The translations under genes and the position numbers were made by a program. Shown piece by piece: positions 11,060-60,130 of a stretch of 64,000 bases of DNA. The stretch lies in sequence record MK327944.1. One strand, 5' to 3'. This stretch comes from Escherichia phage vB_EcoM_G2540-3. Under the pieces are notes generated by a model. That model had not been told where the DNA came from. It ran no database searches and was given only the letters and a program-made list of their open reading frames with translations. The stretch's first letter is position 1. The number at the start of each line of letters is the position of its first letter.

Positions 11060-11530
11060 TTAATCATGTTTCCACACCCCATCGGTATTTGACCAAAGTC
11101 GCTGATTATCTGATCCTCGCCACAGCTTTTTAGTCGGAAGATTTTTCTCATACTTCCCATCAATAATAACATCAACATATTTAAGCATTTCTAGTTGTTT
11201 AATATCTTCAAACTTATATCCTGTCCACAACCAGATATCTTTCTCCGGAAATCTTGCTTTAACCCAAGAAACTAAATTTGAAATCTCTTCTCGGTTCTGT
11301 GGATAAAGTGGGTCACCACCGGTTAAGGTAAGGCCTTGGATATACGATTTGCTTAAATGGGACGCAAGTTCTTTAACGGTATTCATAGTGAATAACTGTC
11401 CGTTACGAGCATTCCAAGTACTACGATTATAACAACCTTCGCATTTATGCAAACATCCAGTGACGAAGAGAACGACCCTACATCCAGGGCCGTTAACGAA
11501 ATCGCATGGATAAATTCTATCATAATTCAT
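11060..11530 (-). CDS. nrdG: Anaerobic ribonucleotide reductase activating protein NrdG (radical SAM), 156 aa
   Basis: Start at MNYDRIYPCDFVNGPG (same N-terminal pattern as E. coli NrdG MNYHQYYPVDIVNGPG); CxxxCxxC radical-SAM cluster motif CLHKCEGC; GGDP motif. Confidence 0.85.
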   Translation of the reverse strand: MNYDRIYPCDFVNGPGCRVVLFVTGCLHKCEGCYNRSTWNARNGQLFTMNTVKELASHLSKSYIQGLTLTGGDPLYPQNREEISNLVSWVKARFPEKDIWLWTGYKFEDIKQLEMLKYVDVIIDGKYEKNLPTKKLWRGSDNQRLWSNTDGVWKHD

Positions 11531-12152
11531 CTTTATATTTCCAAGTATATCCCTTATGAATAGATTGAATTCCTTTGCAACATTTATAAACAGCAGAATG
11601 AAAAAATCCTGCATTTCTTATTTCAGTTGCTCCAGTTAGTTCTATTGTATTTCCGTCTGGTGAATAGCCAATAACCGTTTTGGTGTTAAAGCGATTTCTA
11701 GAACTATTTTTGATATGCTCTTTATGATTAGTAGACAAAGTTCTTCCTGTTAGCCCATCAGATATCCTTTTTCCAAAATCATCAGGAAGAGTTACTTTAG
11801 ACCTAGCTATGCTCATTAGCTTCTTAGTTTTATCGCTTCTTTTTGCGCCACGCTGATTTTCAAATTTCTTAGCTTTTGCATACGCGTATTGTGAAGAAGT
11901 AACTTTTCTATGCTTACTATTACTCATTATCCAATATGCATCATACATCTTTCCACCATATATTTTAGCCAATAAATGGTGAGCAGTATAGTGGGCCTTA
12001 TAAGTTAAAAATACTAAGTTGTCTAAATCATCTGAACCACCCATACTTCTTGGAATTATATGATGAAGTTCATACCCGGCTTTAGTTTGACGGGGCTTAG
12101 ATGGGTGTTCAGCAGAATTAACTAGATTTGAATAGATTCTGTCATAATTCAT
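11520..12152 (-). CDS. HNH homing endonuclease-like protein (Mob family-like), 210 aa
   Basis: HHIIPRSMGGSDDLDNLVFLTYKAHYTAHHLL motif block shared with the other Mob-like ORFs in this window; sits between nrdD and nrdG, overlapping nrdG start. Confidence 0.7.
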   Translation of the reverse strand: MNYDRIYSNLVNSAEHPSKPRQTKAGYELHHIIPRSMGGSDDLDNLVFLTYKAHYTAHHLLAKIYGGKMYDAYWIMSNSKHRKVTSSQYAYAKAKKFENQRGAKRSDKTKKLMSIARSKVTLPDDFGKRISDGLTGRTLSTNHKEHIKNSSRNRFNTKTVIGYSPDGNTIELTGATEIRNAGFFHSAVYKCCKGIQSIHKGYTWKYKDEL

Positions 12153-13966
12153 TGGTGTTTAACCCTATGCATGATTTCTTTGTTTTTACCGAGATTAAAT
12201 CCGCGTTCGTTCGGATTTCCCAAATAACCACATGTTCTTCTTATTGTGTTCATCTTTTTAGGATCAGTTTCTCCACAAATAGAACAAACAAATCCGTTTT
12301 CAGTAGGAGTCATTTCATGGGTACTTCCACATGTAAAACATTTATCTACTGGCATATTAACACCAAAATAATCTAAATGTTGTGCAGCATAATCCCATAC
12401 AGCCTCAAGACCCTTTAAGTTATTTTTCATATCAGGAAGTTCAACATAAGAAATGTGACCACCTGTCGCAATGAAATGATATGGCGCTTCACGAGAAATC
12501 TTTTCAAACGGAGTAATATTTTCTTCTACTGAAACATGGAAACTATTAGTGTACCAGCCTTTATCGGTAACATCTTTTACACTTCCATATTTTTCTGTAT
12601 CAAGTTTACAGAAGCGATAACAAAGGTTTTCAGCAGGAGTCGAATATAAACTAAAAGCAAATCCGGTTCTTTCAGTCCACTGTTTAAGATGAGCATTCAT
12701 TTTAGTTAAAATTTCTTGTCCAATATCACGACCGACAAGAATATTCAATTCGTGAATACCAATGTATCCTAAAGACACTGAACTTCTACCGTTTTTAAAT
12801 AACTCAATTATGTCGTCATCAGGTTTAAGACGAACCCCGAATGCACCTTCTTGGTAAAGAATAGGAGCAACAGTCGCTTTAACTCCTTTTAAGGAACTAA
12901 TTCTACACATCAAAGCTTCAAAACATAAATCCATTCGTTCATTAAATAGCTCAACAAATTTCTGTTCATTGAATTGTGTTCCAATATAAGAATCTAACGC
13001 GATGCGAGGAAGATTCAGTGTTACAACACCAAGATTATTACGTCCATCAAGAATTTCATTACCAGTCGAATCTTTCCATACGCTCAAGAAACTACGGCAA
13101 CCCATCGGAGAAACAGGAACTGAAGAACCGGTAATAGCTTTATTGTTCTTAGCTGAAATAATGTCAGGATACATTCTTTTGCTTGCGCACTCTAGAGCAA
13201 GCTGTTTAATATCATAGTTCGGATCGTCTTTATAAAGATTAACACCTTCTTCAACGAACATAACAAGCTTAGGGAAAATAGGAGTTATCCCGTCACGACC
13301 AAGACCTTTAATACGATTTTTCAGAATTGCTTTCTGAATCATTCGTTCAGTCCAGTCAGTTCCCGTACCAAATGTAATTGTTACAAAAGGCGTTTGTCCG
13401 TTTGAACTAAAGAGAGTATTTACTTCATATTCATAAGCTTGGAATGCATCGTATACGTCTTTTTCTGTTTTAGACTGGGCGTAATTCAACGCATCAGCGA
13501 TTTGCCATTTTTCTGCATCTTCAATATGTTTTGCATAGGTGCGTTTAACATAAGGAGAAAGTACTTTGTCTACATTCGCAAAAGTCGTTCCACCATATTG
13601 ATGGGAAGCAACCTGTGCAGTAATTTGTGCCATAATTGCAGTAGCAACACCGATTGATTTAGGAGTTTCAATCTGTGCATTACCAAGCTTAAATCCGTTC
13701 TCAAGCATTCCTTTTAAATCTACTAAACAGCAATTAGTAAATGGAAGAGCAGGGGAATAATCAATATCATGGAAATGGATAATTCCGCTTTCATGCGCTT
13801 TCATAATAAAAGACGGGACCATATTTTTGGCAATGTGTTTAGACACAATACCAGCCATAAGGTCCCGTTGAGTTGGAAAAACACGAGAATCTTTATTAGC
13901 ATTCTCGTTCAAAAGGTCTTTATTAGTTTTATGAATCAATCCTTCAATTTCTTTTTCAATTGTCAT
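12149..13966 (-). CDS. nrdD: Anaerobic ribonucleoside-triphosphate reductase NrdD, 605 aa, uninterrupted
   Basis: 605 aa; C-terminal Zn-ribbon CFTCGSTHE...CSICGETD and glycyl-radical motif RRTCGYLG; single continuous ORF (no intron). Confidence 0.9.
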   Translation of the reverse strand: MTIEKEIEGLIHKTNKDLLNENANKDSRVFPTQRDLMAGIVSKHIAKNMVPSFIMKAHESGIIHFHDIDYSPALPFTNCCLVDLKGMLENGFKLGNAQIETPKSIGVATAIMAQITAQVASHQYGGTTFANVDKVLSPYVKRTYAKHIEDAEKWQIADALNYAQSKTEKDVYDAFQAYEYEVNTLFSSNGQTPFVTITFGTGTDWTERMIQKAILKNRIKGLGRDGITPIFPKLVMFVEEGVNLYKDDPNYDIKQLALECASKRMYPDIISAKNNKAITGSSVPVSPMGCRSFLSVWKDSTGNEILDGRNNLGVVTLNLPRIALDSYIGTQFNEQKFVELFNERMDLCFEALMCRISSLKGVKATVAPILYQEGAFGVRLKPDDDIIELFKNGRSSVSLGYIGIHELNILVGRDIGQEILTKMNAHLKQWTERTGFAFSLYSTPAENLCYRFCKLDTEKYGSVKDVTDKGWYTNSFHVSVEENITPFEKISREAPYHFIATGGHISYVELPDMKNNLKGLEAVWDYAAQHLDYFGVNMPVDKCFTCGSTHEMTPTENGFVCSICGETDPKKMNTIRRTCGYLGNPNERGFNLGKNKEIMHRVKHQ

Positions 13967-20986: not shown

Positions 20987-21997
20987 TCATTTATAATAAC
21001 TTCGGTGGTTTTCAAGATAAACCTGTTCGAGGAAATTATTCCAAAAGCTCATATCTACTGTTTTAGGCATACCATTCTTAGAAGCTTCAGTAGATGCTGC
21101 TTCTACTTGATCGACCACATCTTCCAAAAACTCTTGAACTGTTTTAAATGGATGTTTACCCAACTTCACGTCGAGAATAAATGGAGCATCTTGGAGTGGA
21201 TAAACCAAGTCACCAGTTTTGTAAATTTCCAATAGTTGAAGTCCACCACGACAAGCATGACTCAGAGCTTTCCAGTCAATACCTTCATTGGCTTCGGCCT
21301 TACGAGCACGTTCACCATATTCAGCATCTAATTTGTTCAGTGACTGCTTAAGCTCAATAAGAGAAAGAGTTGTCTGATATTTACGACCCAACACTGTGTA
21401 AAACGTTTGTGGGCCTGTTTTCTCATGATTATGGAACACCCATTCACAGAATTCGTTTTCTGGAAGACGATGCTTAATATCTTCAACTTTAGTACGACGC
21501 TGCTTAATGGAACCGTCTTCTTGGTAATCAACCCATTGCTCAGGGATTTGATTAACTACTTTCAATACATCGCGTAATGCAGCCAAACGAGAACCCTTGA
21601 CACCATATTTAGAAGCTTGCTTGCGGACATATCCTAAATAGGATTTCATGTTAGTCGTATAAAAACGAGAACGGTTGTCTTGAATAAACTTCCACACATC
21701 AGGCAAATCAGATTTAACCACTAGTTCAGGTGGAGTGTGAAGCATATCCAATGCTACAGTTTCACCATCTACTGCTAATTTAAAGAAATATTTAAGACTG
21801 TATAGTTCATGGTCAATATCATCTTTAGTGTTTTTAGATGATGTGTTGTTGGTATTTTTACTCATATGCTCTTTAACATTTCCGATAAGAATATCACGAG
21901 CAGGAGGAACAAAGATTTCTTTAAAATCTACATCAGATTCTGGGGTAGAAGTTCCATAAAGATGACTACCAAAATAAGACTTAACTACAGTTTTCAT
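20987..21997 (-). CDS. Nucleotidyltransferase-fold protein (Pol-beta superfamily motif), start assumed at MKTVVKSYF
   Basis: GS-x9-DxD signature GSHLYGTSTPESDVDF close to N-terminus; strong terminator hairpin downstream. Confidence 0.55.
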   Translation of the reverse strand: MKTVVKSYFGSHLYGTSTPESDVDFKEIFVPPARDILIGNVKEHMSKNTNNTSSKNTKDDIDHELYSLKYFFKLAVDGETVALDMLHTPPELVVKSDLPDVWKFIQDNRSRFYTTNMKSYLGYVRKQASKYGVKGSRLAALRDVLKVVNQIPEQWVDYQEDGSIKQRRTKVEDIKHRLPENEFCEWVFHNHEKTGPQTFYTVLGRKYQTTLSLIELKQSLNKLDAEYGERARKAEANEGIDWKALSHACRGGLQLLEIYKTGDLVYPLQDAPFILDVKLGKHPFKTVQEFLEDVVDQVEAASTEASKNGMPKTVDMSFWNNFLEQVYLENHRSYYK

Positions 21998-22760
21998 TAT
22001 TAGACCTTTCATAATCTTCATTAAATTGTACAATCAATCGATGATAATTAGATTTTGGATATCCTAATTTACTTATATAAGTTCCGAATGACCCACGTTT
22101 AGGTCTATTTAATTTAATCCATAACTTATAAAGTAAGTCATAGTCTTGCCAATGTTTACCAGTTCTTTGTCTAATTTTAGATGAATTTGATTGTTTCTTT
22201 TTAGTTTCAAAATTATTCAAAGATTTTTTGACTGCAGCAGAGTGTTTTTCTTTAACTCCCGGTCGTTTAAAAGCAGCTTTCACCCCTTTAGATATTTTTT
22301 CTTTAACTTCCGGTTTGTTTTGTGCTTCTAACTGGGATTCTGAAATTTTAGCCCTTATTTCAGGAAGACTTAATGTTATCGAACGTTTTTCTCTGTATTC
22401 ATTAGACTTCCACATTTCTTTCATTGTATTAGAATGTATTTTTGAAAATTTTTCTCTAACTAACTGATATCCTCTTGAAGTTAATTTGAGATTTCTTCCT
22501 AAAGAATCTTCTCCAAAATTATAAAATGACCACCATGCATAAATTAATCCAGGCGAATTATAATGAATTTTAGCTAAAAGCCAATGGGCTATAAAATGCT
22601 CTCTAGCTGTTAATAAAACTAGATTATCAGAATCATCATTACCACCAATACAAGATGGAATAATATGATGCTTTTCCGTATAAAAATTTAATTTAGATTT
22701 ATCTAATTTTCTGAGTTTTCCTTTCTTAATTAAATTATTATATACTTTAGTATAATTCAT
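21981..22760 (-). CDS. mobD: HNH homing endonuclease MobD-like, 259 aa
   Basis: MNYTKVYNNLI N-terminus and HHIIPSCIGGNDDSDNLVLLTAREH block; position between nrdC-side unknown genes and rI matches recalled T4 mobD. Confidence 0.65.
   Translation of the reverse strand: MNYTKVYNNLIKKGKLRKLDKSKLNFYTEKHHIIPSCIGGNDDSDNLVLLTAREHFIAHWLLAKIHYNSPGLIYAWWSFYNFGEDSLGRNLKLTSRGYQLVREKFSKIHSNTMKEMWKSNEYREKRSITLSLPEIRAKISESQLEAQNKPEVKEKISKGVKAAFKRPGVKEKHSAAVKKSLNNFETKKKQSNSSKIRQRTGKHWQDYDLLYKLWIKLNRPKRGSFGTYISKLGYPKSNYHRLIVQFNEDYERSNNENCS

Positions 22761-57619: not shown

Positions 57620-60130
<2,511 letters not shown>

Follow-up and report, generated by a model that had tools for sequence, protein, structure and literature searches.

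mobC at the nrdD–nrdG junction of Escherichia phage vB_EcoM_G2540-3 and the probable origin of its start in nrdG

Anatomy and distribution of mobC

A 64,000-nucleotide (nt) stretch of Escherichia phage vB_EcoM_G2540-3 (MK327944.1), referred to here as the window, contains a gene for a free-standing HNH homing endonuclease, mobC, between two genes of anaerobic ribonucleotide reduction. All three are read from the minus strand in the order nrdD (12149–13966), mobC (11520–12152) and nrdG (11060–11530, with its true start at 11530). nrdD codes for anaerobic ribonucleotide reductase's large subunit in 605 codons (Pfam NRDD, 572 bits, plus Gly_radical), and nrdG encodes the 156 amino acids (aa) of the activating protein of that enzyme (Fer4_12, 171 bits, plus Radical_SAM). 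A preliminary description of the sequence had placed a 210-aa HNH open reading frame (ORF) between nrdD and nrdG, overlapping the nrdG start, and this ORF is present with an overlap of 11 nt. Its ATG (12152–12150) overlaps the nrdD TGA (12151–12149) in the tetranucleotide ATGA (12149–12152). At its other end the last codons (..K-D-E-L-stop) overlap nrdG codons 1–4 (11520–11530), the stop TGA (11522–11520) being formed within nrdG codons 3–4. The gene lies outside any intron, between the nrdD stop and nrdG, or more exactly inside the first 21 nt of nrdG. In phages without a homing-endonuclease gene (HEG) at this site, it is the nrdG ATG that overlaps the nrdD stop in the same ATGA form. The nrdD/nrdG junction of the HEG-less phages G2540 and T2 reads CA(C/T)CAATGAATTATGAT.

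The first 21 nt of mobC (ATGAATTATGACAGAATCTAT, 12152–12132), which encode MNYDRIY, match the first 21 nt of nrdG (ATGAATTATGATAGAATTTAT, 11530–11510), which encode the same heptapeptide, at 19 of 21 positions. The two starts are 622 nt apart, in agreement with the near identity and the spacing of about 620 bp that had been pointed out before. With up to three mismatches allowed, these are the only two sites of the 21-mer in the 64 kb of the window; shuffles, a control that takes no account of coding constraints, predict 0.01 sites. An in-frame TAA 9 nt before the mobC ATG means that there is no in-frame start farther upstream, and the next in-frame ATG is codon 37, within the HNH core. A 2010 review gives mobC a '24-bp overlap' with the upstream ORF and a ribosome-binding site 27 nt upstream (PMC2988022). 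The window sequence at 12149–12180 permits an overlap of just 4 nt because of the same TAA. An exact-consensus search of 11450–12600 found neither a T4 late promoter (TATAAATA) nor a MotA box. The longest ORF that contains nrdG (11060–11614, minus strand, 184 aa) opens at an upstream ATG within mobC. The nrdG of Klebsiella phage Wolf_ER13 (L040 2417–2971) is annotated from the upstream ATG within mobC, which is probably an annotation error due to the overlap.

The HNH assignment of the preliminary description is borne out by a match to Pfam HNH (PF01844) of 27.6 bits over residues 28–50, above the gathering score of 21.4, which places the protein in the HNH superfamily. The catalytic core as a whole spans residues 28–58 (ELHHIIPRSMGGSDDLDNLVFLTYKAHYTAH, 11979–12071, minus strand). 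Among structures in the PDB, residues 25–58 align with the HNH domains of group II intron maturase and Cas8-HNH proteins (E ~3e-4), and residues 155–207 show a weak match to I-HmuI (1u3e, E 0.45). MobC itself has no match to Pfam NUMOD at E<=0.01, and NUMOD3 is present in its homologs. Similarity to Mob proteins extends over the full length, including the N-terminus MNY-x-K/R-IY and the core HH..P...GG.D..N.V.LT..H..AH.LL.K. In total, 13,277 library proteins match MobC at E<=0.001, and for most of the top 150 the alignment begins at residue 1.

The ORF is T4 mobC (NP_049689; ORF 55.10 of Y00122), a gene already known, to which it is 100% identical over 633 nt. The surrounding 1.4-kb interval is 99.4% identical to T4, where it is annotated as mobC, nrdG and nrdD, and the two nrdG genes differ at 2 nt. 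A published table lists mobC as a free-standing HNH gene at nrdG/nrdD (PMC2988022). In T4, as in the window, mobC lies between nrdD and nrdG with the same overlaps and the same MNYDRIY start. Unlike T4, however, the window phage has an nrdD that lacks the 1033-nt I-TevII intron and differs by 3% in its exons, and it carries two Mob-like HEGs for which T4 is not among the best matches. The window belongs to a mosaic T-even phage and not to T4, as the sporadic HEG at 58546–59358 also shows (see below).

Among 835 related phage records with matching flanks, mobC is carried by 31, and the remainder have either no HEG or another one at this site. A HEG is absent from most junctions, where the nrdD TGA and the nrdG ATG overlap. 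Because most relatives are without the gene, mobC is sporadic rather than ancestral, and such a scattered distribution over close relatives, always at one site, is what a homing gene is expected to show. The preliminary description would have regarded the ORF as ancestral had T4 and most relatives shared it; T4 does have the same MNYDRIY start, but most relatives do not carry the gene. All 32 loci from an NrdG scan of IMG/VR were HEG-less, and these served as a source of reference nrdG starts and of a Jiaodavirus-type backbone (L004, L027). Two records labelled 'T4' (MZ375356.1 and OL964745.1) match nt 56–90 alone of a 90-nt nrdG probe. Their genomes, of 152 and 160 kb, are smaller than that of T4, and they probably carry deletions in the nrdD–mobC–nrdG region.

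As described earlier, nrdD is a single 605-codon ORF. Alignment with the T4 exons (MAFFT) gave 97.03% identity and one gap, of 1033 nt, at the T4 intron. The ORF is continuous where T4 nrdD has its ~1-kb group I intron encoding I-TevII, after nrdD nt 538, and the empty site falls at 13428–13429 (minus strand). Nine mismatches to T4 are clustered in nrdD nt 537–576 (13380–13440), at nt 537, 546, 549, 552, 553, 555, 558, 573 and 576. Clustering of this kind beside the empty site would be expected if exon polymorphisms were linked to the presence or absence of the intron and I-TevII. The combination of mobC with an intronless nrdD is already present in HP3, Pinarejo and Elenatom.

Chimeric junctions and the mosaic nrdG

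T4-type mobC is also carried by three Klebsiella Jiaodavirus phages, Wolf_ER13, Boboto and Shark_ER15, in flanks that are ~67–80% identical to the window. In the Jiaodavirus backbone, nrdD ends in ..VRETNEAS and is followed by a 177-nt spacer with a small ORF, and the resident nrdG starts with ATGAATTTCGACAGAATCTA(C/T), encoding MNFDRIYPSDF. In Wolf_ER13 and Boboto, nt 8 and 9 alone of the 633 nt of mobC differ from the window (TAT to TTC), and Shark_ER15 has these changes plus four further substitutions. Positions 8–9 are exactly those that separate the Jiaodavirus (MNF) nrdG start from the T-even one, and TTC is codon 3 of the resident nrdG. The mobC start of the carriers (ATGAATTTCGACAGAATCTAT) is identical at 21 of 21 positions to the nrdG start of the HEG-less Jiaodavirus KMI12. 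As their functional nrdG start they have the T4-type copy in place of the resident MNF type, and this downstream copy does not differ between T4, the window and the Jiaodavirus carriers. Together, the two-nucleotide difference and the complete match to KMI12 demonstrate, at the level of sequence comparison, that mobC takes its first codons from the recipient and that the downstream nrdG start belongs to the cassette.

A three-way alignment locates the junctions. Wolf_ER13 follows the HEG-less backbone L004 up to nrdG nt 17–20 and, past that point, follows the window across the entire mobC body into nrdG. Its nrdG is of T4 type at every informative site to about nt 136 and of backbone type again by nt 153. 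Near-identical copies of mobC in diverged backbones, with co-converted flanks and donor-type nrdG tracts, are a signature of homing genes. Since 2 differences in 633 nt stand against flanks that are 20–33% diverged, these phages provide indirect evidence for a very recent movement of mobC, a predicted endonuclease gene, between phage genera of Escherichia and Klebsiella. The small ORF of the Jiaodaviruses is conserved, encodes ~78 aa, fills the 177-nt nrdD–nrdG spacer and overlaps both genes (L040 3475–3714; L042 1296–1529; L047 1236–1469). Where mobC is present, this ORF continues into the mobC start.

The nrdG of the window is itself mosaic. Nucleotides 1–60 are T-even-like with some unique changes. 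From nt ~61 to 297 (11234–11470, minus strand), each 30-nt bin has 26–30 matches to Jiaodavirus KMI12 or L004, compared with 12–25 to T2. The 3' third, nt 301–471 (11060–11230, minus strand), is 100% T2-type, with 30/30 matches in every bin, and represents the resident backbone. We read the middle tract as DNA that was probably co-transferred with mobC. All 28 records that match the tract at 100% identity, as detected with the 90-nt nrdG probe, carry mobC. No T-even record has the T4-type nrdG tract without mobC, giving no evidence for loss of mobC through recombination between the 21-nt repeats.

On the other side of the gene, the 3' end of nrdD in the window is ordinary T-even sequence up to the ATG, and mobC codons 4–7 (GACAGAATCTAT) match the Jiaodavirus nrdG start at 12 of 12 positions compared with 9 of 12 for T2. 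The simplest history would be a transfer from a Jiaodavirus-like donor to the T4 lineage, a direction that we infer, with the left crossover in nt 1–11 and the right one at about nrdG nt 300. The nrdG of T4 itself is a recombinant with a Jiaodavirus-type tract. Within this tract, right after the radical-SAM CxxxCxxC codons, nt 106–111 change from AAATCT to CGTAGT, which amounts to K36R and a TCN-to-AGY serine codon switch. CGTAGT was considered as an immunity allele against mobC and rejected, as it also occurs in KMI12, 5N and KLB2, Jiaodaviruses that have no HEG. We read it as a marker of Jiaodavirus ancestry rather than of the HEG.

A second HNH HEG, of 279 aa, occupies the same slot in TadeuszReichstein, Yersinia phage PST and Klebsiella phage SmallBear_ER8. 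It was found in 32 records (22 Tequatrovirus and 10 Klebsiella-phage) and is unrelated to mobC, its protein having just 38% identity to MobC across 60 aa that surround the HNH core. Like mobC, it has overlaps of 4 nt and 11 nt and finishes with ..EL-stop (here ..I-N-E-L-stop) in nrdG codons 1–4. The first 40 nt of the gene match the nrdG start of its backbone at every position: the T-even start (MNYDRFYPCDFVN) in T-even backbones and the Jiaodavirus start (MNFDRIYPSDFVN) in SmallBear_ER8, a Jiaodavirus. Behind the HEG, both backbones have a distinct cassette-borne nrdG start (MNYDRIYPCCFVNG). We regard this gene as an independent replicate, since in two backbones it starts with 13 codons of the resident nrdG. 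In the 279-aa protein these 13 codons form an N-terminal extension, whereas the 7 codons of MobC are in register with the N-terminus of its family. In PST the 279-aa HEG is annotated as 'mobC'.

Origin of the shared start

These observations are probably best explained by a mobC cassette that sits inside the 5' end of nrdG, uses the resident start as its own and supplies a substitute nrdG start, with crossover at the shared patch. The mobile unit would not be a gene inserted at the nrdD–nrdG boundary but mobC from about codon 7–8 onward together with the substitute 5' end of nrdG. Once inserted, mobC would begin with the start codon and first seven codons of the resident nrdG, and the upstream copy at 12132–12152 is assigned this role from its 19/21 match and from the Jiaodavirus carriers. 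Because the resident start stays overlapped with the nrdD stop (AUGA), mobC would inherit the translational coupling of nrdG. Translation of nrdG would restart from the cassette-borne copy at 11510–11530, whose codons 3–4 (TA-TGA-T) would also give the mobC stop. The in-register fusion should be costless to the enzyme, as the Mob N-terminus MNY-x-K/R-IY is almost the same as the MNYDRIY of NrdG. During double-strand-break repair, the ~20-nt shared patch would act as the left crossover point, and a right crossover within nrdG would co-convert a stretch of donor nrdG. MobC would have to be catalytically active and to cut in or near HEG-less nrdG. The preliminary description had suggested exchange or duplication between the endonuclease 5' end and nrdG. 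Exchange is borne out by the Jiaodavirus carriers and the 279-aa HEG, but simple duplication at insertion is not, the upstream copy being resident and the downstream copy travelling with the cassette. Cassette insertion with capture of the start offers a testable account of how a free-standing HEG could fit into an operon and leave it unharmed, taking the start and the coupling of its target and returning a substitute 5' end.

Several points weigh against this reading. The first is the background of the Mob family itself. A word-indexed homolog search returned 12 matches, and family statistics were taken from 160 sequences of an exhaustive representative search, 158 of them longer than 100 aa and 115 with a canonical start. 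At these 115 starts the residues are M (99%), N (74%), Y (99%), K/R at position 5 (74%), I (63%) and Y (96%), with MNYQRIY the most frequent heptapeptide. The contrast drawn earlier with the MNYTK starts of the other Mob genes is accurate for the window, where these begin MNYTKVY and MNYTKIY, but it was overstated given a family start of M-N-Y-x-[K/R]-I-Y. NrdG of HEG-less T4-like phages starts MNYDR(I/F)YPCDF, and 5 or 6 of the 7 residues shared with MobC are typical of Mob proteins. A Mob homolog between the baseplate genes gp5 and gp6 (P0064) starts MNYDRIY in the absence of any nrdG context. Because of the family-typical residues and of P0064, an origin of mobC codons 4–7 from nrdG cannot be proved in T4 itself. 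Much of the resemblance between the MobC and NrdG starts is family background, and protein similarity alone is weak evidence; the MNYDRIY protein match was rejected as evidence by itself in view of the family statistics and of P0064. The MobC homolog of Slopekvirus KP27 (44% identity), the immediate upstream neighbour of nrdG, has an MNYQKIY start of its own, and this type of homolog provides no evidence of nrdG start sharing. The Jiaodavirus carriers (n=3) all have the same junction, and one event may lie behind them. No MobC cleavage site can be inferred from the nrdG alleles, the sole candidate, CGTAGT, being found in HEG-less Jiaodaviruses as well. Finally, MobC activity is entered as 'ND' and its target as unknown in the published table (PMC2988022).

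The same family background might be taken to mean that the resemblance is a coincidence between an ancestral Mob start, MNY-x-[K/R]-IY, and NrdG MNYDR[I/F]Y, with shared codon usage and no exchange accounting for the 19/21 match. The prevalence of MNYQRIY, the setting of P0064 and the KP27 start would all fit, as would matches from ICP1 and from Dickeya, Acinetobacter and Sinorhizobium phages that align from residue 1. We nonetheless consider coincidence unlikely. D at position 4 occurs in just 2 of the 115 representatives, the mobC ATG lies exactly at the position of the nrdG ATG of HEG-less phages, and a second HEG lineage has 40 nt of resident nrdG. In the Jiaodavirus carriers coincidence is already contradicted, as the only two differences in 633 nt match the resident nrdG and the start agrees with KMI12 throughout.

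Convergent selection could also bring the two starts together if both needed AUGAAUUAUGA, in which two UGA triplets would serve as upstream stops for termination-reinitiation. In this motif the TGA at nt 2–4 ends nrdD and the TGA at nt 9–11 ends mobC and the TadeuszReichstein-type HEG, and neither start is preceded by a strong Shine-Dalgarno sequence (window sequence; PMC2988022). Such a constraint accounts for nt 1–11 at most and not for codons 4–7, and it leaves the 40-nt identity in the second HEG unexplained. Moreover, mobC of the Jiaodavirus carriers starts ATGAATTTCGA, so that nt 8–9 are unconstrained and track the backbone. We therefore give this explanation little credence. A transposon-like target-site duplication, in which ~21 nt of nrdG were duplicated at integration and the copies then diverged, would suit the 21-nt direct repeats that flank a 601-nt insert body but is very improbable: the chimeras contradict it, with an upstream copy that follows the recipient backbone and a downstream copy that is constant across backbones, the repeat length varies by HEG (21 versus 40 nt), there is no transposase and no terminal inverted repeat, and HNH HEGs move by repair-mediated copying (PMC2790892).

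Returning to capture of the nrdG start by the cassette, we tentatively propose, with slightly less than even confidence, that it is a selected design of nrdG-targeting HEG cassettes rather than an accident of one insertion. At least two unrelated HNH lineages open in the first 7–13 codons of the resident gene and end in a cassette-borne copy, and under this proposal the patch would have two jobs. It could serve as a portable left homology arm of 20–40 nt between genera whose upstream DNA is not collinear; nrdD lies directly upstream of the slot in Tequatrovirus and the 177-nt spacer does so in Jiaodavirus. It could also give the HEG the translational coupling of the target gene to nrdD. We found no description of start sharing in the accessible literature, which touches on mobC only briefly and did not extend to the primary mobC/segH paper, and an earlier description is possible. 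As the gene is known, the start-sharing architecture and the link between Tequatrovirus and Jiaodavirus are modest additions. They also explain two recurring annotation errors, in which nrdG is at times called from an ATG inside mobC and unrelated HEGs in the slot are at times labelled 'mobC'.

Related elements and other genes of the slot

The closest architectural parallel to mobC is the MobA element of T4-like phages (gene 39 / gene 60 split). In MobA elements the target segment is present as a replacement copy, 'HomR' (bioRxiv 10.1101/2022.08.31.505936), and as with mobC, a Mob-family HNH cassette lies inside the target gene together with a diverged replacement segment. Unlike mobC, the MobA element removes 55–75 nt from the resident gene, whose protein it divides into two parts, and contributes a translational bypass element. 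In mobC the resident segment is kept and reused as the N-terminus of the HEG, and nrdG is in one piece. A second parallel is T4 mobE, a free-standing Mob HNH gene between nrdA and nrdB whose AUG overlaps the upstream stop, with a target in the 5' part of the downstream gene and co-converted flanks (PMC2790892; PMC2988022). It resembles mobC in its position in an nrd operon, in the overlap with the upstream stop and in co-conversion of the 5' region of the downstream gene. It differs in that it is not reported to share the start codon of the downstream gene, and in that MobE activity has been demonstrated whereas MobC is a predicted homing endonuclease.

The window contains two other Mob-like HNH genes. 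One, of 259 aa with the start MNYTKVY, lies on the minus strand at 21981–22760 in the thioredoxin/nucleotidyltransferase (nrdC.x) region. It occurs in 46 of 506 related records, with its best match in phage F25, and its ATG is preceded by ..GAACCA, much like the ..CACCA before mobC. The other, of 270 aa with the start MNYTKIY, lies on the plus strand at 58546–59358 between two neck-protein genes and occurs in 46 of 505 related records, with its best match in phage G9062 and T4 not among the top matches. Neither gene matches the start of its downstream neighbour, the best comparison having 7 mismatches in 21.

Slopekvirus-type loci were considered as an independent test of start sharing, by comparison of KP27 with 'HEG-less' relatives. 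This proved uninformative, as the KP27 HEG has a start of its own and deletion has secondarily given rise to the empty sites. The 'HEG-less' loci retain the 3' end of a KP27-type HEG just upstream of nrdG, which may be needed for nrdG expression. KLB3 (L037, about 1765–1826) has lost 616 nt by deletion between two AAGGT microhomologies and retains ~58 nt. Cronobacter phage JC03 (L038, about 1790–1968) keeps ~190 nt of the HEG, and its record is labelled Pseudotevenvirus yet is 99.3% identical to KP27 at this locus. In Cronobacter phage leB (L039 1720–2362), a MobC-like HEG is annotated as a 148-aa fragment from an internal Met, with a full MNYHKIY start ~200 nt upstream of the annotated one. 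This HEG is probably frameshifted or decaying.

A segH-type GIY-YIG gene in the nrdD/nrdG slot was reportedly described by Sandegren et al. in 2005. We found a GIY-YIG-type gene at the nrdD/nrdG junction of phage 132 and fPS-2, which is probably segH. Like mobC, it occupies the nrdD/nrdG junction, here of other T-even phages, and brings an altered nrdG 5' end (MNYDRIYPCCFVNG). Unlike mobC, it falls in another enzyme family, with NUMOD3, an I-TevI-like DNA-binding domain and a weak match to the GIY-YIG of SegE, and it opens with its own start, MHRYYIIYK, which overlaps a replaced nrdD 3' end and contains no nrdG codons. In 215Ecol030PP (L041 3640–3700), mobC is joined via a shared CATGCATAGG to a GIY-YIG-type nrdD 3' end (..KRVKHA-stop), and the spacer is a remnant of a T4-type nrdD end (GGTTAAACACCA). 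The nrdD of this phage (L041 3666–5962) is annotated as two pieces with a 420-nt gap. In TadeuszReichstein, a second putative HEG of 273 aa (MNVVYKLSFINR..YYYIGSK) with a GIY-YIG-like appearance lies between nrdD and gene 49 (L003 5665–6486), so that nrdD has HEGs on both sides.

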